The notes under the pieces were generated by a model that had not been told where the DNA came from, ran no database searches, and saw nothing but the letters and a program-made list of their open reading frames with translations. From a virus (lineage: Duplodnaviria; Caudoviricetes), in the IMG/VR virus record IMGVR_UViG_3300026541_000038, positions 1-49,129 of that record: 49,129 nt of DNA, one strand, 5' to 3'. Below are positions 4,805 to 38,265 of this stretch, piece after piece; positions within the stretch are counted from its first letter, which is position 1, and each line of letters opens with the position of its first letter. Made by a program: the position numbers and the translations under genes.

Positions 4805-5273
4805 TTAGTTGGTCCTCATCAATCTTTGTAAATTCCATTTCATTAATGTGGTATTTGCCATCGGTTGTAAGGTGATAGATTGTCTCCTCAAGTGATGCGA
4901 TTCTTTGGCCTAGTTCAATTTGTAAAATTTTGAATCTTGCACATGCTTGGAATTTACTATCCCCCTTAGCCTTGTTTAGCATTTCACGAATATCAATACG
5001 GTCATCTTGTAATCTGTCATGCTCATTTACTAAATTTGCTAGTCTGCCTCTGGTAATTGATGTTGCTCTTTCCTTTACTTTTGTGTTCATGATGTTTAGT
5101 TTGTAATAGTAAGATGATTTTGTAATTAGTTTGGTTGGATTCATTGTGAATAGTTCACCCTCTTTGATAACCTGATAGCCTAATCTTAAATTGACATAGT
5201 TTAGTTTTTCTTTTACTGTACGATAATCTCTTTCAGCAATTACGATATTTTTTTCAATATCATCTAATCTCAT
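4770..5273 (-). CDS. Putative terminase small subunit
   Basis: Directly upstream of and overlapping TerL; helical; late-promoter motif 26 nt upstream. Confidence 0.5.
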   Translation of the reverse strand: MRLDDIEKNIVIAERDYRTVKEKLNYVNLRLGYQVIKEGELFTMNPTKLITKSSYYYKLNIMNTKVKERATSITRGRLANLVNEHDRLQDDRIDIREMLNKAKGDSKFQACARFKILQIELGQRIASLEETIYHLTTDGKYHINEMEFTKIDEDQLNEKIRLFANLT

Positions 5274-5298
5274 GCCTATTTTTTAGGCTGAGTTCACA

Positions 5299-5310
5299 AA
5301 AGAATTATTT
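5299..5310 (-). promoter_or_regulatory. Late-promoter motif AAATAATTCTTT (terminase operon)
   Basis: 26 nt upstream of ATG 5273. Confidence 0.7.
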
Positions 5311-5399
5311 TGAATCTATTAGGAATTAATCATCTAGCTTGAAAAGTCTAGTGTGTGTAGGCGTGATATTATTTTGGATAAAAAAGAGAGTGTTAGTCT

Positions 5400-5789
5400 C
5401 TAGAGGTCTTTGATGTCTTTACCTGTAGCATTCTTAATTATACTTCCTAAAAAATTCATACCATCTAAATCAGTCACATTGTCTTTTTGAGAATTGTAGA
5501 ACTTTATTATCTCATCTACTATCTTTTGATTCTGATCTATCTTTTCATGTCGTTTTAGTTCCTCTTTGACGTATTTTTGTAATTCTATAGGATTTATGAT
5601 TTCAGGAAGAGGGATATTCTTAGAGTCTTGTATCTCCTGTATCTGTTTGTTTACTAGCTTTTCTTGTGTCTTTTTTACTGCTTGGAGTATTTGTTCTAAC
5701 ATGAAAGATTCTGTGTATTCAGTTTCATTTCCGCTAAAATCTAAAGGAGTAGTTATCATTCCTGTTTTATCGTCTATCTCGAATTTCAT
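5400..5789 (-). CDS. Hypothetical protein sharing modules with 7928..8158 and 14171..14617
   Basis: ILQAVKKTQ and NQ.IVDEI segments shared. Confidence 0.65.
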   Translation of the reverse strand: MKFEIDDKTGMITTPLDFSGNETEYTESFMLEQILQAVKKTQEKLVNKQIQEIQDSKNIPLPEIINPIELQKYVKEELKRHEKIDQNQKIVDEIIKFYNSQKDNVTDLDGMNFLGSIIKNATGKDIKDL

Positions 5790-5999
5790 TTCTTTAGATC
5801 CTCTAATTTTTTTTCTAAGAGTTGTTTTATGTTTGGAATATTCTTGTATGCACCAGGGATGATTAGTTGTACTTTATCTGTCCAGTATTTTGTTTTTTCA
5901 TTCATTTTTTTTCCTCAGACGATTCTATTGCAGTTCTTCACCACATAGATTATTATCCGATGTATAGAATTGGAATTACTCATTATTAAAAGATCAAGT

Positions 6000-6160
6000 A
6001 ACTATGGGGAACTCGTTAGCTATCCCCTATAGCGTGAGCAAGAGTTCAAAAATTTCACTTACGAGTTCCACGTAATATGATAGTTGTACTGTCTTAAAAG
6101 TAATGCCTGACACCCCACACTCACAAATTGTGGAACTCATAAGGAGTGAGGCATCAGACG
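6000..6160 (-). ncRNA. Candidate structured (pseudoknotted) ncRNA
   Basis: GC-rich intergenic island; two 14-bp helices that need G-U wobbles available only on the minus strand; TATA-like TTAAATA at 6186-6180. Confidence 0.6.
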
Positions 6161-6235
6161 TTTTTTATTGAAAAATTTCTATTTAACCTAATTATCTAAT
6201 TTAGTCGTAAAGTATTTCTAGTAAAGATGAACTTC

Positions 6236-7216
6236 TTAATTATTTACCTGGTCTAATATTATTTGAGGCAAATCTACTTTCACCTTACAATTAGGACATT
6301 TGTGAGTCTTGATGATATGCTGAATTCTCTCCTTGTATAATGGGATATGACAGTCACTGCATTTTGGTATGTGTTGTGGTGGCATCATATTATTGCAGTC
6401 AAAGCACACCCAAGAGGTAGTATGATCTGATGGTCTCACGTTAAAAGACATGCATTCACTACATCTTGTTCCTGTGTATCTTTCATAAAGTGCAAAGTCT
6501 CTATTTGTTGGTTTTAGTAGGTATAATTGAGATTGCGGTCCACCTGTTTGAAATTTAGTAGCTTGTTTTTGTGTTAGAAATTTATTTTGTTCCTTCATGT
6601 GCATTAAAATTACTTCTTGGAATATTAGTCCGCACTTGTTTGTATTGCCCATTACAGTAGCAAGGCATTCAAGTAAAAATAATTCGGTATTTTGTGGTAT
6701 CTTTGTTTTGTTGTCTATCACATTTTTACAGTTATACATCATTGTTTCTTGTTGAAAATAAAATTCTCTCATTTCTTTTTTTCCAAAAATATTTTCTAGT
6801 TCATCACAATTTTGTGATTTTTCTTTGATGGTTCTGCAAATGTCTATAATACTATCACAGAGTAACACCATCTTATCATTTTTAGTATTTATAGAACTAT
6901 TATCTGATTGCCCTAGGGCAATTTCTTCATTAACAGAATTTAAAACATAACCAGCTGTTCTTCCGGTTCTATAAAAATAACCAGACCTTGTCCAATTAAA
7001 ATCTTCTCTAACAACATCTTGATTGTATTTGTTCCATAAACTTTCTTCAATGTCATTTGCAACTTTAGCCCAAATTTTTTCTTTTTCATATCCTTCTACT
7101 TCTAATGCAACACCCATTTTTAGCCATAAATCTTGTGATGATAATGCTTTGTCATTTTCTAATTCTATTACTTGATTTAACAAGTGTACATAATCAGAAT
7201 TTAGTTTAAGACTCAT
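6236..7216 (-). CDS. Protein with C-terminal multi-CxxC zinc fingers (possible regulator)
   Basis: CSEC, CFDC, CSDC, CPNC motifs; last gene of the early block. Confidence 0.7.
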   Translation of the reverse strand: MSLKLNSDYVHLLNQVIELENDKALSSQDLWLKMGVALEVEGYEKEKIWAKVANDIEESLWNKYNQDVVREDFNWTRSGYFYRTGRTAGYVLNSVNEEIALGQSDNSSINTKNDKMVLLCDSIIDICRTIKEKSQNCDELENIFGKKEMREFYFQQETMMYNCKNVIDNKTKIPQNTELFLLECLATVMGNTNKCGLIFQEVILMHMKEQNKFLTQKQATKFQTGGPQSQLYLLKPTNRDFALYERYTGTRCSECMSFNVRPSDHTTSWVCFDCNNMMPPQHIPKCSDCHIPLYKERIQHIIKTHKCPNCKVKVDLPQIILDQVNN

Positions 7217-7931: not shown

Positions 7932-8158
7932 TTATTTTCACCTTGAACTTTATTGTAATTCTGTCTTGCGTGGATTTCATTTTGTGTCTTTTTTACTGCT
8001 TGAAGTATTACTTCTAAATCTTTAAGATCGGGATGTAAAACTGCTACGTCATTTTTTCCAACTGGAATCTTACACATGAATCCATCCCTAGATATACGAA
8101 AATACAATACATTTTCATTCCATATTTTTTCATTCATTTTCTTTTTCCTCCTTAACAT
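7928..8158 (-). CDS. Hypothetical cassette protein (true start probably ATG ~8137)
   Basis: Bounded by dyads 7941 and 8149; GGAGG RBS. Confidence 0.65.
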   Translation of the reverse strand: MLRRKKKMNEKIWNENVLYFRISRDGFMCKIPVGKNDVAVLHPDLKDLEVILQAVKKTQNEIHARQNYNKVQGENN

Positions 8159-8429: not shown

Positions 8430-8639
8430 TCAATTCTCAACATCCTCCCCAGCATAAAATCCCACTAATGGAGAATTATCATAACCTTTAGGATAGGTTT
8501 TTGGTTCTATTGTTTTAGCATTCATTAGTTTGTATTCTATATTTTGTGGAACTGGTGCTTTGAAGTCTCCAGTCGTTTCTATAGTAACAAAAGCAAATTT
8601 GTCTATTTTTTCACCTGCATCAAATCCGTATGTAATCAA
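8430..8639 (-). CDS. Hypothetical cassette protein
   Basis: Starts immediately after dyad 8640-8669. Confidence 0.6.
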   Translation of the reverse strand: MITYGFDAGEKIDKFAFVTIETTGDFKAPVPQNIEYKLMNAKTIEPKTYPKGYDNSPLVGFYAGEDVEN

Positions 8640-9082
8640 TTCTCTACATTCTCCTGGGAAGGTATTGCGTAAGGTGTATCTTCATACAATACAAGTTTTA
8701 CTCTGCAAATTTTATCACCATCGTTATAGTTCATTTGTTGTAATAGATATTTATGACCAAATAATTCAATTTCATTCTTAATTTGCTCTTTGAGGTATTG
8801 TTCATGAATATCTTCTACATTTGCTTCTAGTTCAATTATGGTTTTTACTTTATGTTTTTCACTCATTCCTTTACATTCTCCAACATATGTCATCGTGTAT
8901 GGTTTCGTATTAGATTTATAAAAATTAGGATATGATCCGGTACAATCCATTGTCCAATTTGAAGGTAATACTAGAGTTTTGTCTAGGGTGAGAGGTTCAG
9001 TAACTGCGAATGGTTTAGCAATTTCATAGGTAGTAGAAGTTTCAATCAAATATCCTTCACTTACAAGTTCCTCAAGATTCAA
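8636..9082 (-). CDS. Fusion of two cassette ORFs; C-terminal half is a paralog of 9079..9309
   Basis: Internal dyad 8867-8896 with RBS and ATG at 8866 (MSEKHKVKTIIELEA). Confidence 0.7.
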   Translation of the reverse strand: MNLEELVSEGYLIETSTTYEIAKPFAVTEPLTLDKTLVLPSNWTMDCTGSYPNFYKSNTKPYTMTYVGECKGMSEKHKVKTIIELEANVEDIHEQYLKEQIKNEIELFGHKYLLQQMNYNDGDKICRVKLVLYEDTPYAIPSQENVEN

Positions 9083-9309
9083 TTCTTTTCATTCTCCTGA
9101 GACTGTATTGCGTAAGGCGTATCATCATACAATACTAATTTTACTCTACAAATTTTTTCTTTATCATCATAATCAAAGTGCTGTAATAGATATTTATGAC
9201 CAAATAATTCAATTTCATTCTTAATTTGCTCTTTGAGGTATTGTTCATGAATATTTTTGATGTCTGCATCTAGTTCAATTATGGTTTTTACTCTTAGTTT
9301 TTCATCCAT
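9079..9309 (-). CDS. Hypothetical cassette protein (duplicated)
   Basis: Near-identical to 8636..8866. Confidence 0.75.
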   Translation of the reverse strand: MDEKLRVKTIIELDADIKNIHEQYLKEQIKNEIELFGHKYLLQHFDYDDKEKICRVKLVLYDDTPYAIQSQENEKN

Positions 9310-9491
9310 TCTTTACATTCTCCATATTCTGTTTTGCGGGAAGAGGGTAATCAATTGTAAAAATATTTGAACTTAGGACTTCTTTTACAGTGACTGTTGC
9401 ATCATAATCAGCAATAATATCATCATGTCGTGTTGGCCAATCTTCTATTCTTTTTTTCAATCTTCCTTCTCCATAAAGTGTATTGCGTGAA

Positions 9492-20438: not shown

Positions 20439-21611
20439 TTATTTTGAGGATTTTTCTCTTTGCATAAAAAGATCAAATGCCTTGATGCTTTCTTGCATGC
20501 TTGCAATAGTTTCTTTTTGTTCTTCTACCTTTTTGTTTGCCTCCTCTAACTTGCGTATCTTTTCTTTGTTTTTAGCTTGATCAAAAATCAAGATGTACGG
20601 TGCCACATCTACAAAGAGTTCTAGTTTTTCCTCATCTGTTCTTCTCTGGTATGTCTGCAGATATGCACCATGTCCAACCATTGCATGAACCACATCTCCA
20701 TCCAATACTTTTAGAGCTTTGGTGATAAATCGAGCTCGTAAAGAATAAAGTGTAATTTTATGTTCCCCTGTAGATTCATATTTCATGTCTAACCCTAATT
20801 TCTCAAGGACTAGATTGAAAGAGATTCTTAATGTAGCTAACATGTATGTGGCAAAAGTTTTGATAGCTTTAATTTTTGCCTTCTCTTCTTTTAGATGAGA
20901 GTATTTGTTAAAAAATGATTGAGGAATTACTTTACGTTTGGTCCAAACAAATTCTTCTAGTTCTATCTCTTTGAGTAATCTTGTAATGTATGGAGTAGCT
21001 TCAACAGATGCAAATACGGTTCGTGAGATTCTTTTCTTTGTAAGATAGTATGGGATTTCTATTTTGTATTGTTTGTTAATTAACGTGTAATGTTTTTTCT
21101 GAGTACCCATTAATTCTACTGGACGCATCCCTACACTTGATTGAGTTAAAGTGAATCCTTGATTCTTCCAGTTTAGCTGTGATATGATGGAAATAAATTC
21201 ATCTTCTGATGGTGCGTACTTTTCTTCCTGGATATGTTCAGGCCACTCTAGCTCTTCTTTCATATCATGAGCTGTGACTTTGATTTTTTTGTACCAGAGA
21301 TACTTGTTTAGTCTTGAAAATGATTGTTTTACACTACCATGAGATAGATCAAATTTTTCAGAAAGATGATCTATGAAATCCTGTAGTATTGGGTATAGTT
21401 CATCTTCTCTCTCATCTTCTGGAAGTGATTTTAAATGTTCAATAAATTTGTCAGTATCTAGGTTGTTATACTCTGAATAAAGAAAATCATCAAATCTAGT
21501 TTTGGCAAGAGTACATGCACTGATGATGCTATCACTCATTTTATCTAGTCTATCTTTTTTGAATGTGTTCCATGTTCGTTTCTTTTGGAGTGATAGTTTT
21601 TGAGATGTCAT
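20439..21611 (-). CDS. int: Tyrosine recombinase/integrase
   Basis: R (GMRPVEL), K (TKKR), YxxR (YSLR), H and Y (MVGHGAYLQTY). Confidence 0.92.
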   Translation of the reverse strand: MTSQKLSLQKKRTWNTFKKDRLDKMSDSIISACTLAKTRFDDFLYSEYNNLDTDKFIEHLKSLPEDEREDELYPILQDFIDHLSEKFDLSHGSVKQSFSRLNKYLWYKKIKVTAHDMKEELEWPEHIQEEKYAPSEDEFISIISQLNWKNQGFTLTQSSVGMRPVELMGTQKKHYTLINKQYKIEIPYYLTKKRISRTVFASVEATPYITRLLKEIELEEFVWTKRKVIPQSFFNKYSHLKEEKAKIKAIKTFATYMLATLRISFNLVLEKLGLDMKYESTGEHKITLYSLRARFITKALKVLDGDVVHAMVGHGAYLQTYQRRTDEEKLELFVDVAPYILIFDQAKNKEKIRKLEEANKKVEEQKETIASMQESIKAFDLFMQREKSSK

Positions 21612-22958: not shown

Positions 22959-23234
22959 TGAAAAATCTATACCAAAGTGATTTAGTAATAAATTAAGTTT
23001 TGATTCTAATGATGTAATACGATTTCCTTGATCATCAATTTTTTTGTAAAAATCACCATGTATATCGTGTGAATCTGAATCAGATTCAGATAATTCTTCT
23101 ATTTTTTGTTTCATTAGAATAAAACATTTCTCTTTTTTCCAAAAATATCTAATTAACATTCCTGATACTGGAACAAGTGGAATCAGTATTGCCAGTATTA
23201 TTTCTATAGACACTTTAATTATCACTTCTTCCAT
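22953..23234 (-). CDS. 1-TM coiled-coil protein, possibly lysis-related
   Basis: N-terminal TM followed by coiled coil. Confidence 0.5.
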   Translation of the reverse strand: MEEVIIKVSIEIILAILIPLVPVSGMLIRYFWKKEKCFILMKQKIEELSESDSDSHDIHGDFYKKIDDQGNRITSLESKLNLLLNHFGIDFSK

Positions 23235-23311
23235 TTTTTCCCCCTTGTAGAATATTTGAGATACTACACAAAAGAATTAAAGTTGATTTTATGAAATTTT
23301 GTAATTACTAT

Positions 23312-23363
23312 GTGTCAAGACTGCAGTACTACAGCCTTGCCACCGACTAAGGGGATAGTCAAC
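23312..23363 (-). ncRNA. Candidate two-hairpin sRNA with UCCCCU loop
   Basis: Stems 23363-23356/23349-23342 and 23339-23329/23326-23316, with G-U pairs on the minus strand. Confidence 0.4.
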
Positions 23364-23486
23364 ATGAATTTCAACTATAAAGTATTAAGAAATAACTTGT
23401 ACTCCACTCATCACTTTTTCTCCTTGAGAGTGATTGTTTTTTATATCCAATGTCATAACCTGTTTATGGAATGAGTCACATAGATT

Positions 23487-24920
23487 ATGATGATGTTTGA
23501 GAATTTAACACAACACTTGCAAAAAATTAGCATTACTCATATAATTTTAATTGTGTTTTCTGTTCACATGCTTTTGATTTCAAGACCTATTTTTGAAATT
23601 CTGGATGAAACAATTTTTACAAATATTACAAGGTGGTTTATGGTAGGCTTGGATCACACCCCTTACCAATTGCCGGGATTATCTTTAATCACATCTCCTT
23701 TTGTTTATATTTTTGGCGATAATTGGTTCTCATGGCGATTTCCCATCATCATATTTGGAATGATATTTTTATTTTATTATTATAAGGTAATCAACCACCT
23801 AACAAGTAAAAATATTGCAATATTGACCACCATAATATTATCTCTTAGTACCACGATATTTACTCATTCATCACTTTTGTTAAGAGATATACCAGTTATG
23901 GCATTAGGATTTTTGGCAATTTATCTTTATTTGAAGCAAAGATATTATTTTACAGCCCTTGTAATTGGAATTTCAGCAATAATCAAAGAAACTGCAATAT
24001 TTTTTGTTATATTCATTGTATTACATTATGTCCTCAATAACCGAGAAAAAATAATCATGCAAATCTCATCTAGTCTGTACAAACAGTGTTTTGGATTTAT
24101 CAAAACACCATTAATTACCGCATTAATTATTATAGCATCATTTCTTATTCCTTTAGCAATTTATGACAATACAATTGAAGTTTTAGAATACAAACAAAGA
24201 ATCCCCGTATACTATATTCATGATCAATCAACCAATATTGGAAATGGAACGTTTACAACAACCTTAACTCCATTAATAATACAAGAAACAAAATTAGAAA
24301 TGTTTGATAGTGATTTACGGTTTGTTCCTGAAAACAAAATAAAAGATCCGATACATCATATAAGATCAATGTTTTTCAATGGATATTATTTACAAAATAC
24401 AAGTAATAATCCAAATCAATTTAATTTCATTAATACTTTTATTCCAAAATTAAAAACTGCTGAGATAAGCTCAAGTAATAGCGGTCAGTATTTGTTAATA
24501 ACAGCAGAACGACCAGATAGTAAGGGGATTTATAGTGAATCTGAAGAAAAACATGGGGTTGTTTTTGATACTAAATGGTATCAAGCACAAGTAAATTATT
24601 CTTGGTGGTTTATGGGATTTTGGAGTTGTATTGCTCTTGTAGGATATTTTATATTTAGAAAATTTAGAAATAATATACCAATTTCAAAAGATATGATTTT
24701 CATAATCTGCGGGTTTGTGTTTTTTGTTCCTTATTTATTAGTAAATATGATGAGGGATAGTTATGCATATTACATGATTTACTTTTTACCATTCATGGCA
24801 TTTGGATTAATCACCATAATTTATAAAATACAAAACAATACTCGAAGACATATTATTTTACTTGGATTATTAGCAGCTATTTTGTTTAACTTTGTATATT
24901 TTTTCCCGATAAGATTTTGA
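23487..24920 (+). CDS. GT-C fold glycosyltransferase (PMT/ArnT, GT39/83-like), multi-TM
   Basis: DE motif after TM1 (ILDE), QLPG, WRFP, LLRD, SAIIKETA; about 10 TM segments. Confidence 0.82.
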   Translation: MMMFENLTQHLQKISITHIILIVFSVHMLLISRPIFEILDETIFTNITRWFMVGLDHTPYQLPGLSLITSPFVYIFGDNWFSWRFPIIIFGMIFLFYYYKVINHLTSKNIAILTTIILSLSTTIFTHSSLLLRDIPVMALGFLAIYLYLKQRYYFTALVIGISAIIKETAIFFVIFIVLHYVLNNREKIIMQISSSLYKQCFGFIKTPLITALIIIASFLIPLAIYDNTIEVLEYKQRIPVYYIHDQSTNIGNGTFTTTLTPLIIQETKLEMFDSDLRFVPENKIKDPIHHIRSMFFNGYYLQNTSNNPNQFNFINTFIPKLKTAEISSSNSGQYLLITAERPDSKGIYSESEEKHGVVFDTKWYQAQVNYSWWFMGFWSCIALVGYFIFRKFRNNIPISKDMIFIICGFVFFVPYLLVNMMRDSYAYYMIYFLPFMAFGLITIIYKIQNNTRRHIILLGLLAAILFNFVYFFPIRF

Positions 24921-25242: not shown

Positions 25243-27612
25243 CTAAACTGTAACAGTAAAATCAACATCAAATCTGAACCAATCACCATTATTTGATCTT
25301 ACAAATAGATGAGGTAGTAATCCAGTATCAATTCCCATTGCACCTTTATGAGTTCCATAAAATCCATCAAGGTCTGCTTTAGTTGGAACAACTGGAGGAA
25401 TTGCTTGAGGCATTGCCAACATTCCAGCACTCCCAGTAGTTGAAGCTGCATCATCTAGTTGTATTCCAAATTCTACAGATGATGTAGAGAGTATTTTTCC
25501 AAATGTAATAGTAAGATCTTGAATATCTATAATCTTTCCACCAAACATGTCAATATCTCCACCAACCATGTTAAGTTCACTAGTACCACCACTTGCTTGT
25601 AAAGTATCAAATCCTGTAATATCTCCACCATTGACATTCATTACAGATCCTGCACCATTGAAAGTAGTATCTCCCAAATTAATCAAATTGTTATTGGCTG
25701 CATCAATTTGACTTACCCAGGGTGTTTGAGCACTAGGTCCTAATGGTCCAATCTCAACACCGTTTGATTGAACATAGAATACTTTTGTATTTCCTCCTTC
25801 TTCTTTTGCATAAAGTCTAGCAGTATTAGCTAATCCAGCAGGTGTTGAAATTTCGGTAAGTTGGATATAATTATTAGTGACATCTAAATTACTAAGTAAT
25901 TTTATATTTCCATCATTTGTGTCATTTATTCTAATAAAATCATTTTGAATTCCATTTTGTGCTACTCCAATTTGTGCAGAACCACTTCCACCTGAAGTAA
26001 CATCAACAATACTTCCTGCATAAAATGCCATTGTAAGCTGAGTTGGTGTGTCATTATCTGCACTTAATTCAAACGCACCAATACCTCCTATAGCTACTGG
26101 TGATATGTGATTTACAATTCTAGAAAATGATGAGCTATTATCATCTTGTATTTCAAATATTCCACCCATAAAAGAGGCTTTTAATTCATTTTGAACAGAC
26201 CATCCCCATCCATCATTTACATTAACATTAGAAATTAAATCGCCTGTTGAATCAATATACCATACAACATCATTTACACTAGTAGCCGATGTTGTACCTC
26301 CTGATAATTGAAGTCTATCTACATTAATTACATCATTACTATTATGATCCACATCTCTAAACATATCGACTAAATTATTTTTTCCATCATTGAATCTCAT
26401 GAATATATTTTGAGAACCAATTTGGTTAACCTGAAATGCCATTCCACCTTCAAATGTTGTGTTGCCAGTATCTTCTGCAGTAAATGAAATAATTGATGCA
26501 AGTGTCTCACCCCCTGTTGTTCTGGGATATAATCCTCTAATGTCTGCTATTGATGTTCCTGCTGCTGGAACCGTTCCCTCTCTTACAATTTGTATTATGG
26601 GAAGTCCATTGGTTCTTGATTTTCGAAGTGTTGATACTGTATCTTGTAAACCAATTACATTAGAGTGAGTAAAAATTATTGCCTCAGTATCTATATTATT
26701 AATTACAAGATCACCAGCTCCAATATTATCAACATAAATTTGGGGAACGTTTACACCAGCAACTACCCCTGAATTTTGAACAAATATCGCTCTATCAATA
26801 TTTACAATATCTAAAGTTTTTATATCAATTTGAGTAGCAGATAATTCTAATACATTATTTCCAGCATTAATATTGAAAATCATTTTGTCATTGGTATCGA
26901 CACTTATTCCCAAGTAATCATCATTAGCTGTATTACTCCATGCGATTCCAATTACATTATTTGGAATGTTTAGTTGTGCAGCAGTAGGAGAGTTTGCACC
27001 AAATGCTAATTTTTGTTGTGCTACCCAATCAAGTGCAGCATTAGCTTCTAAATGTTGATATTGTGCAGTTGCAGCAGGTACATTTACAGTTCCTCCAGTT
27101 GATGAAAGAAAAATTTTATACGCTCCGCCTGTAACTCCTGTTTCTGTTTCTGAGTGTTTTACTAATTCATAAAATTCTGTATCAGTAATTGTAATATCAT
27201 TAGAAGTTAGTATGTCACCCCCTGACTTTATTATTAGAGTTCTTCCAATCTTTGGAGTAATTTTTATTCTTGCACCATCTTTTGCTGTACCTTGAATAAA
27301 TCGTAACTCCATATCAACTGCAGGAGTTACAAAATCTACTATTATCATAGAAGATATGAGATTAATCTTATCAAATACACCAGTAGATGATCCTGAACTA
27401 TCTACATCTGTAATTTGATGTATTATTGGCTCGTTTGATCTGACACCGCCAGCATCTCCTGATGCATCGTTTCTAGATCCACGTGTTGAATCTATTGATA
27501 TATCCTCATTTCCACCAACAGAGCTAATTTGAGAATCAATAATATCATCGAGTTGTCTTTGTAACTCGTCTATCTTTTCATTATCTGATCCTGTTTCAAA
27601 TCCTCTTACCAT
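25243..27612 (-). CDS. Tail fibre/spike protein
   Basis: Gly/Asn/Asp-rich beta repeats, STPA...ARLYAKE motif; last tail gene. Confidence 0.7.
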   Translation of the reverse strand: MVRGFETGSDNEKIDELQRQLDDIIDSQISSVGGNEDISIDSTRGSRNDASGDAGGVRSNEPIIHQITDVDSSGSSTGVFDKINLISSMIIVDFVTPAVDMELRFIQGTAKDGARIKITPKIGRTLIIKSGGDILTSNDITITDTEFYELVKHSETETGVTGGAYKIFLSSTGGTVNVPAATAQYQHLEANAALDWVAQQKLAFGANSPTAAQLNIPNNVIGIAWSNTANDDYLGISVDTNDKMIFNINAGNNVLELSATQIDIKTLDIVNIDRAIFVQNSGVVAGVNVPQIYVDNIGAGDLVINNIDTEAIIFTHSNVIGLQDTVSTLRKSRTNGLPIIQIVREGTVPAAGTSIADIRGLYPRTTGGETLASIISFTAEDTGNTTFEGGMAFQVNQIGSQNIFMRFNDGKNNLVDMFRDVDHNSNDVINVDRLQLSGGTTSATSVNDVVWYIDSTGDLISNVNVNDGWGWSVQNELKASFMGGIFEIQDDNSSSFSRIVNHISPVAIGGIGAFELSADNDTPTQLTMAFYAGSIVDVTSGGSGSAQIGVAQNGIQNDFIRINDTNDGNIKLLSNLDVTNNYIQLTEISTPAGLANTARLYAKEEGGNTKVFYVQSNGVEIGPLGPSAQTPWVSQIDAANNNLINLGDTTFNGAGSVMNVNGGDITGFDTLQASGGTSELNMVGGDIDMFGGKIIDIQDLTITFGKILSTSSVEFGIQLDDAASTTGSAGMLAMPQAIPPVVPTKADLDGFYGTHKGAMGIDTGLLPHLFVRSNNGDWFRFDVDFTVTV

Positions 27613-37959: not shown

Positions 37960-38265
37960 TTAGGATTGAGTTGTTGGTGGTGTTTCTAACTCTGGTTCAG
38001 GTGTTGGAACTACTGCTGTATTCTCTGGCAATTTTACAGGTTCTACAGGAAGTATGAATTGGATACCATTTTTTCTTAACAATTCTTGTAGTCTAAGGAT
38101 TTCTGTAGCTTGTTTGTTGCTGTTTTCTGCAAACTGTAAAAGCATAGTTGCAAGTGTTTTATACCAACTAGATGATGTATTGTTTGCCTTTGCCTGAGTT
38201 TTTAGAGTTTCAGTTTCACCCTGTTCAATTATTTCCATAATAGTTGGGGGTTTTTGATTGCTCAC
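37960..38265 (-). CDS. Hypothetical coiled-coil protein
   Basis: Late-promoter motif 27 nt upstream of GTG. Confidence 0.6.
   Translation of the reverse strand: MSNQKPPTIMEIIEQGETETLKTQAKANNTSSSWYKTLATMLLQFAENSNKQATEILRLQELLRKNGIQFILPVEPVKLPENTAVVPTPEPELETPPTTQS

Follow-up and report, generated by a model that had tools for sequence, protein, structure and literature searches.

A conserved two-part RNA element beside the terminase region of a virus of probable archaeal host, with possible antisense pairing over start codons

A conserved, strand-specific RNA-level structure was found on the minus strand of the virus record IMGVR_UViG_3300026541_000038, a complete tailed virus record with direct terminal repeats, whose 49,129 nt were analyzed in full and are referred to here as the window. 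The element lies just upstream of the terminase region, as its first-pass annotation as an RNA near the terminase genes had indicated, and consists of two modules, A and B, each of which probably gives rise to a small RNA of its own, with tandem TATA-like boxes as promoters. A segment in the interior of B, overlooked in that annotation (6052-6034), is complementary to start codons in four relatives and points to antisense control of translation. On the basis of the modeled pairings, an antisense relay is tentatively favored, with slightly less than even confidence, in which A would open B and B would then pair over a start codon and repress its target. The helix P1, the helix X:X' and the guide:start pairings were computed directly together with their covariation, as were the separation of A from B and the distant target in one relative, L039; two transcripts, leaderless targets, repression and the switching on of B by A are what we infer.

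The virus, its likely host and the neighboring genes

The terminase large subunit of the window was of the RNase H type. Its relatives were found on a contig of Nitrosopumilus sp. (103 kb, 57% identity), in Nitrosopumilales, and on a third contig labeled Deltaproteobacteria, while a profile of the 326-aa gene upstream of the element had matches in 15 of the 401 genomes of the order containing Nitrosopumilus. Given the terminase relatives on Nitrosopumilus contigs and the upstream-gene matches in that order, the host is likely an archaeon, probably a marine ammonia oxidizer of the Nitrosopumilus type. The DNA of the window had no match among GenBank phages, and its terminase reached only about 23% against those of Bacillus phages.

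By present evidence the upstream gene stands outside the RNA system, with A and B behind it in only 4 of the 29 records that retain its 3' end and a further 400 nt. The protein had no usable match in Atlas, NCBIfam or PDB; its structural model, consisting of helices and zinc ribbons, had no PDB match at E 0.001, which is a weak test at a pTM of 0.34. One relative of this gene (E 2e-70) was located within a 1.9-Mb host contig (G313:C1:1262239-1263231), with no terminase match and no A or B in the 20 kb around it.

Several other features of the genome were recorded. A 390-aa ORF at 21611 resembles a tyrosine recombinase in its motifs, an identity confirmed by no library searched. Among the few plus-strand genes was a membrane glycosyltransferase (23487-24920; PF13231, E 5.7e-10). 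A 236-nt tandem duplication (8636-9314, 85% identical) gave two related ORF ends, and a direct repeat of 36 nt (5664-5699 and 7982-8017, 92% identical) was common to two unrelated ORFs. A strong hairpin (-29.4) was present on the plus strand at 37-101 and at G002:26696-26760, inside a 590-aa ORF spanning the ends of the circular record.

Structure of the two modules

The features of the element are collected in Table 1. The outer stem P1, the helix X:X', the terminal hairpin with its competing segment X2, and the box ahead of A had all been reported previously, and each was recovered on the minus strand in the same place. The strand X, which had been described as a loop, is not free, since it pairs with Y in the free hairpin and forms an upper stem of 10 bp (6143-6130 with 6129-6120).

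Table 1. Features of the RNA element and of its surroundings in the window.
Feature	Position	Strand	Remarks
Terminase large subunit	4804-2975	minus	phrog_675 E 1.9e-33; PF17289 E 1.6e-4
Conserved upstream gene, 326 aa, helical with C-terminal zinc ribbons	6236..7216	minus	RNA element in the gap after the gene
TATA-like box 1, putative promoter of module A	6179..6186	minus	begins 27 nt before A
Module A, 55-nt hairpin, putative small RNA	6105..6159	minus	outer stem P1 and upper stem X:Y
P1, outer stem of A	6159-6146/6118-6105	minus	14 bp, 4 G-U, -21.3 kcal/mol
X, segment of A complementary to the 5' end of B	6130..6143	minus	X:X' pairing
Y, wobble-rich internal partner of X in free A	6120..6129	minus	10-bp upper stem
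U-tract after A, coinciding with TATA-like box 2	6092..6099	minus	putative end of A and promoter of B
Module B, putative second small RNA	5995..6071	minus	closed by X':X2, guide inside; 3' end approximate
X', predicted 5' end of B	6058..6071	minus	pairs with X of A or X2 of B
Guide segment	6034..6052	minus	U-run 6052-6046 and Z 6044-6034; start-codon complementary in relatives
Terminal hairpin	6002..6032	minus	contains GGGGA segment (6029-6020) and X2 (6016-6008); predicted to form once A takes X'
Degenerate third box	5992..6002	minus	in relatives, TATA-like box 27-28 nt before methyltransferase GUG
Possible distant target, GUG of 101-aa ORF	38246..38265	minus	15 bp with guide, not significant

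Hairpin A alone folded at -29.6 on the minus strand (z -5.56; 0/200 shuffles) versus -16.2 on the plus strand, and was the most stable of the 35 local folds at or below -19 kcal/mol across the whole window; the hairpin scan covered 23 of 33 records. The strand specificity claimed earlier for the RNA thus held for the hairpin but not for the 211-nt region as a whole (z -2.92 on the minus strand, -3.00 on the plus strand). The helix X:X', of 14 bp with one G-U (-20.6), crosses P1. When the region 5990-6200 was shuffled by dinucleotides (n = 500), one such helix appeared in a single shuffle and two in none, and the plus strand of the same region contained no helix longer than 10 bp.

Four related segments are present, X and Y in A and X' and X2 in B, and the mutually exclusive pairings among them bore out the proposal of a switch-like alternative pairing. 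A further pairing suggested in the first-pass annotation, GUGAGU with GCUCAC, was present over 6 bp but was weak (-6.7). A leader peptide was considered and rejected: although short ORFs run across the element, L003 and L039 alone have ATG at the position in X2 where such a peptide would start. The second match to X' in the window, at 25356, fell within a coding region.

Homologs and covariation

When the upstream gene and the terminase were used as queries, 51 distinct related records were obtained, many of which were fragmentary. Both modules were found in five of these: L001 (genome G001), L003 (G003), L007 (G004), L039 (G015), and L015. All covariation counts refer to six sequences including the window, with pairing registers set by hand at the helix ends, and the rows are not independent, since B of the window and B of L007 are 94% identical.

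In the outer 12 pairs of P1, 71 of 72 cells were paired and both sides had changed in six pairs, whereas slid-register controls paired only 29-33 of 72 cells. The cells of P1 included 18 G-U and no A-C, which together with the covariation supported the earlier view that the structure is formed by RNA rather than by DNA. For X:X', 72 of 78 cells were paired, with both-side changes in six of 13 pairs, three of which depend solely on the uncertain register of L001; for X':X2, 54 of 66 cells were paired, gaps excluded. The cognate X:X' pairing was the best or within 1 kcal/mol of the best in all six sequences. X' was also the best partner of X over the whole record, on either strand, in four of the five records, the exception being L001, which fits poorly, X' not being among the best partners of its X. 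The expectation of covariation across homologs was accordingly sustained with the hand-set registers, but a MAFFT alignment, in which two rows were misplaced, exceeded shuffles in pairing (2/500) and not in both-side changes (156/500). In a leave-one-out profile, A of L001 was recovered at E 0.0033 and its B was not found, and A and B of L039 were recovered at E 1.3 and E 0.0092, respectively.

Wider searches for the element gave little. A covariance model of A run over 71 sources returned below E 0.36 only the six input sequences. A loose pattern gave about 1,700 matches in viral contigs, and none of the 120 loci listed had the upstream gene or the terminase; with a pattern of B, two of 12 loci were known homologs and 10 were unrelated. 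Among the host-order genomes the pattern occurred in 9 of 401, compared with 12 for the control, and neither A nor B was found near 20 upstream-gene matches. No RNA run was listed with the element among the sequencing runs searched; four DNA runs were, with small shares, and their contigs did not reach X' or B. One contig of a sequencing run (run X2) carried a further variant of A and another carried the same kind of methyltransferase start, with no contig joining both.

Other hairpins in this and related genomes

Hairpins at the same position in G005, G022, L005, L035, L053, L189, and L190 had no clear partner. In more distant relatives, the interval from the upstream gene to the terminase contained strong hairpins of other kinds (L046:6310-6365, L053:1808-1860, L190:6662-6704, L189:7630-7685, L035:933-983, and L005:70-112), for which a partner was searched and none was found.

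Between the element and the terminase, a leader hairpin (5913-5961, minus strand; also in L007, L027, L039, L243, and L245) with about 91% identity in three relatives (z -3.28) has a variable loop and ends beside GAGG, upstream of the unit of a 129-aa gene; it is independent of A and B. A second candidate small RNA was noted at the end of the late genes (23310-23365, plus strand; G002:2916-3020, G003:3478-3589, and G005:43864-43975), consisting of a long hairpin followed by a short one with a GGGGA loop. The loop is constant and the stems vary, with G-U pairs favoring its strand in three relatives; the copy in the window folds no better than shuffles (z -0.81). The letters GGGGA are common to this candidate, to module B, and to the regions upstream of two late genes.

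Probably two units rather than one RNA

The distance from A to X' was 33-38 nt in five sequences and 1,130 nt in L039, where three ORFs of at least 70 aa lie between A and B and X:X' still comprises 16 bp (-22.1). A TATA-like box was located 26-29 nt before A in four of six homologs, and 26-29 nt before the GG of X' in all six, including L039, where no A precedes it. Such a box also stood ahead of the target 5' ends in 7 of 7 cases against a background of 5.2%; the pattern was devised after the sites had been seen, and the offset of -9 for the G015 target was the choice of the analyst. The separation in L039 and the box belonging to each half argue against the single pseudoknotted RNA of about 160 nt proposed at first. 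Transcription of B would begin at X', and the U-tract after A may have a dual role, as the end of A and as the promoter of B. Formation of a helix of 14-16 bp by a strand enclosed in a hairpin should require that its partner have a free end, which the 5' end of a transcript would supply.

Pairing of the guide with start codons

The gene that follows B in L003, L007, and L015 encodes a DNA methyltransferase (PF01555 or PF05869) with a GUG start. Segment Z of the guide pairs with this start in all three (36/36 cells over 12 pairs), and in L015 one pair was retained through a change on both sides inside codon 2. The guide of L007 paired with the start of its Dam gene at -25.4, the best of 45 starts, and none of 200 shuffles was as good at either window setting. 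In L003, pairing with the start of a ParB-type methylase (-19.8) was the best of 105, with 1/200 shuffles as good; with a wider window 18/200 were as good, which is not significant. A third TATA-like box precedes the methyltransferase start by 27-28 nt in L001, L003, L007, and L015, and also in L030 and L042, which have no A or B; from this spacing the methyltransferase mRNA is likely leaderless. Native leaderless GUG starts have been reported in Haloferax (PMC4983044).

In G015 (L039) no methyltransferase follows B and the interior letters of B differ. Its guide is complementary instead to the start region of an LVIVD-repeat gene of 1,297 aa that lies 21 kb off at 23113; this pairing reached -27.1 compared with -19.0 for the next of 70 starts (0/200 shuffles, and 0/100 in a separate set). 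This distant target is a result from one genome, with 1/31 shuffles matching genome-wide and 22/200 with a shorter guide window. The interior of B in L001 had no good start partner; in that record the anti-start strand, Z, directly precedes the GUG.

The methyltransferase gene that adjoins B in relatives is missing from the window, whose guide had no significant target among the starts of that genome. The best of 116 start-anchored pairings was with the GUG at 38265 (-16.4), and 17/200 and 166/200 shuffles were as good. The ATG at 5983 pairs weakly with Z and was not counted as a target, since it belongs to the next promoter region. With the known target gone, the element may be orphaned or retargeted in this genome.

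Two further observations concern these genes and their upstream regions. The first 17 residues of the Dam-family methylase L015:1003 and of the ParB-type methylases L001:3089 and L003:5445 are nearly identical, which suggests that methylase genes have been swapped behind a common start. An AT-rich motif, AATAATTC, occurs ahead of the TATA-like boxes or starts of several late genes of the window (upstream regions of 37913, 38265, 44545, and 45251) and also ahead of the methylase box in L001, L003, and L042; it is a possible late-promoter element.

Proposed mechanism

In the relay, hairpin A would seize the 5' end of B through X:X', thereby opening the closing stem X':X2 and exposing the interior guide. 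The exposed guide would pair over the start codon of a target mRNA that is likely leaderless, and the resulting duplex would likely block translation. The likely purpose would be to keep a methyltransferase or a late gene silent while the promoter of A is active. The same pairings could arise in cis on a read-through RNA, and both modes may therefore operate at this locus.

Predicted net binding of A to the 5' end of B was favorable in the window (-7.6), L007 (-4.5), L015 (-8.3), and L003 (-8.0), weak in L001 (-0.7), and unfavorable in L039 (+2.8) once B had folded, so that in this relative A would need to engage X' ahead of X2 synthesis. Folding placed X2 in the terminal hairpin when X' was held. 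In nested co-folding, the target was bound better with X' held than with X' free in 4 of 4 cases (-11.8 vs -9.9, -21.8 vs -17.8, -17.5 vs -11.7, and -18.2 vs -7.5). When loop-type binding was allowed, the outcome was split, with free B the stronger binder in L007 and L039 and the weaker one in L003 and L015. When X' was blocked on a continuous RNA, the helix that masks the start became easier to reach: the barrier in L007 was 10.6 instead of 21.4 and that in L003 was 5.4 instead of 19.3, and L015 had no kinetic trap (6.3 vs 5.7), all along refolding paths that exclude pseudoknots. Capture of the guide by the 3' arm of A was unfavorable in the window and L007 (+7.8 or worse).

A broader and more doubtful proposal is that the element constitutes a retargetable two-RNA switch working by strand displacement, in which each RNA would engage the free 5' end of the next transcript. 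B would serve as a scaffold with a 5' handle, a swappable guide and a 3' clamp, and A as a dedicated trigger, with no protein effector encoded. Should the relay prove true, it would offer a compact and testable case in which one small RNA of an archaeal virus acts on another and leaderless 5' ends come under antisense control. The way in which small RNAs gain their targets would be illustrated by a guide that differs in target from one related virus to the next, and such a guide would lend itself as a natural template for riboregulators in archaea; the RNAs involved are shorter than 100 nt, and the key predictions are accessible in vitro.

Alternative explanations

The main rival, which we consider unlikely, is a leader of the T4 gene e type acting only in cis on read-through RNA. 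Here X:X' would be a pseudoknot and the guide would bury the methyltransferase GUG in early transcripts, while later transcripts from the inner promoter, lacking the upstream strand, would be translated. The start codon is indeed paired in the full leader of L003, L007, and L015 (P unpaired 0.0), the box 27-28 nt before the GUG could provide the inner promoter, and the U-tracts are short. L001 is explained best in this way, with its anti-start strand right before the GUG (a 5-bp hairpin, -4.4) and a spacer after A that pairs with the tail (-17.2), which is possible only in a read-through RNA. Nevertheless, the gap of 1,130 nt in L039 and the match of its guide to a gene 21 kb distant speak against this reading, and the window and L039 retain an X:X' helix of 14 and 16 bp, respectively, without an adjacent methyltransferase. 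In addition, masking of the start does not depend on the state of X', free or held, and A would therefore have no equilibrium role in cis.

In a second alternative, differing from the relay only in the sign of the effect of A, free B would repress with its guide in a closed ring, and A would act as a sponge, opening B so that X2 refolds and B is inactivated or destabilized. This seems quite improbable. Free B bound targets at -14 to -21 kcal/mol when loop-type binding was allowed, surpassing held B in two relatives, L007 and L039, in the second of which X2, once released, folds back over part of the guide; anti-sRNAs of phages have also been described (PMC4104026). Yet all four nested calculations favored held B, and the guide was still exposed with X' held in L003 and L015.

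A single structural or catalytic RNA, such as the ribozyme or the pRNA-like multimer suggested in the first-pass annotation, is very improbable. The long crossing helices, an X:X' pairing that could join molecules hand in hand, and the nearby terminase gene would suit it; however, neither A nor B has an invariant unpaired core or an Rfam match in the window or the five homolog loci, the halves lie apart in L039, the guide:start complementarity would go unexplained, and a packaging component would not be expected to occur as patchily as in five of 51 related records. Scarcely credible either is a reading of X, X' and X2 as DNA repeats that bind protein among closely spaced promoters, with incidental RNA folds: a TATA-like box near each copy and the Watson-Crick inverted repeat that spans two promoter spacers in L001 agree with it, but the letters of P1 vary freely while its pairs persist with G-U and without A-C, X and X' change together, and the guide:target helices contain bulges and wobbles.

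Comparison with known RNAs

The window and the five homolog loci gave no Rfam match (six hits at E 1.6-9.9 were far below the gathering score), in keeping with the earlier designation as a novel non-coding RNA. The core of the hammerhead ribozyme comprises invariant unpaired CUGAnGA and GAAA at a three-stem junction; the letters that resemble it, at 6157-6151, lie within P1 as paired positions and differ among homologs. A phi29-type pRNA, which should occur as one RNA in every member of a phi29-like packaging system, was discarded on account of the RNase H-type terminase, the occurrence in 5 of 51 related records and the distance of 1,130 nt between the halves in L039. A match to a known terminator or attachment structure, named at the outset as grounds for refutation, was looked for and not found: the region 5200-6400 contained no bacterial intrinsic terminator in a scan for a G+C stem followed by at least five U, which does not cover archaeal oligo-U, and the element is single-copy in the genome and absent from the 20 largest repeat families listed. 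ARAGORN detected no tRNA or tmRNA gene in the window. A tracrRNA:crRNA or OMEGA guide, which calls for direct repeats and a linked RuvC or HNH effector, was rejected, as X' and X2 are inverted and the upstream protein, modeled as helices and zinc ribbons, occurs without A and B in 25 of 29 records.

The literature searched, mostly open-access, contained no description of the element, nor of post-transcriptional control in viruses of ammonia-oxidizing archaea. Four record ids were absent from six of the supplementary files of the IMG/VR candidate RNA set (PMC10690425), a set in which the element may nonetheless already be listed.

The closest systems found differ from the element in several respects. 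IsrK, from the Salmonella prophage Gifsy-1, binds an mRNA and activates its translation (PMC4825925). Like A, it is viral, is encoded upstream and on the same strand as its RNA partner and refolds a structured downstream RNA, and its short and read-through forms, as described there, were taken as a further likeness (PMC4825925). Upstream same-strand complementarity to a downstream RNA is present here as X:X'; however, folding indicated that binding of A exposes no start, against an activating sign of the IsrK type. The partner of A, unlike that of IsrK, appears to be another small RNA, transcribed from a promoter of its own and carrying an anti-start segment, the host is archaeal, and the sequences are unrelated.

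In Methanosarcina mazei, a single-stranded segment of sRNA162 masks the start region of one near and one distant target (PMC3510493). Comparable complementarity to start regions was found in L003, L007, L015, and G015, and not in the interior of B of the window or L001. sRNA162 is chromosomal and masks an internal ribosome-binding site, and its abstract names no trigger RNA (PMC3510493), whereas the targets here are likely leaderless and the guide varies between viruses. The leaders of T4 e, soc, 49 and I-TevI bury the start with an upstream strand in long transcripts and have an inner promoter (PMC3014915). At the level of the motif, a helix over the start whose 5' strand lies ahead of the start site of an inner promoter is present in L001, L003, L007, and L015, the comparison being inapplicable to the window and L039. 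The T4 hairpins, as described, are purely local and in cis, with no counterpart of module A or of a distant target (PMC3014915). By sequence, the element belongs to none of these three systems.

Several other RNAs are comparable in part. The c4 RNA of phage P1 is a same-strand RNA that pairs with a nearby transcript, RNA-OUT of IS10 is a stable hairpin, encoded on the opposite strand, whose weak upper stem engages a 5' end, and phage anti-sRNAs of pathogenic E. coli reportedly act on host sRNAs. The CI RNA of P4 is likewise a same-strand phage RNA pairing with a nearby transcript, cut from a leader and causing premature termination (PMC4825925). Unlike the element, P4 CI and RNA-OUT have no second, guide-bearing RNA as their target. 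The phage anti-sRNAs of pathogenic E. coli, described in an Hfq context, do pair with another small RNA (PMC4104026); in contrast to them, both RNAs of the element are viral and adjacent.
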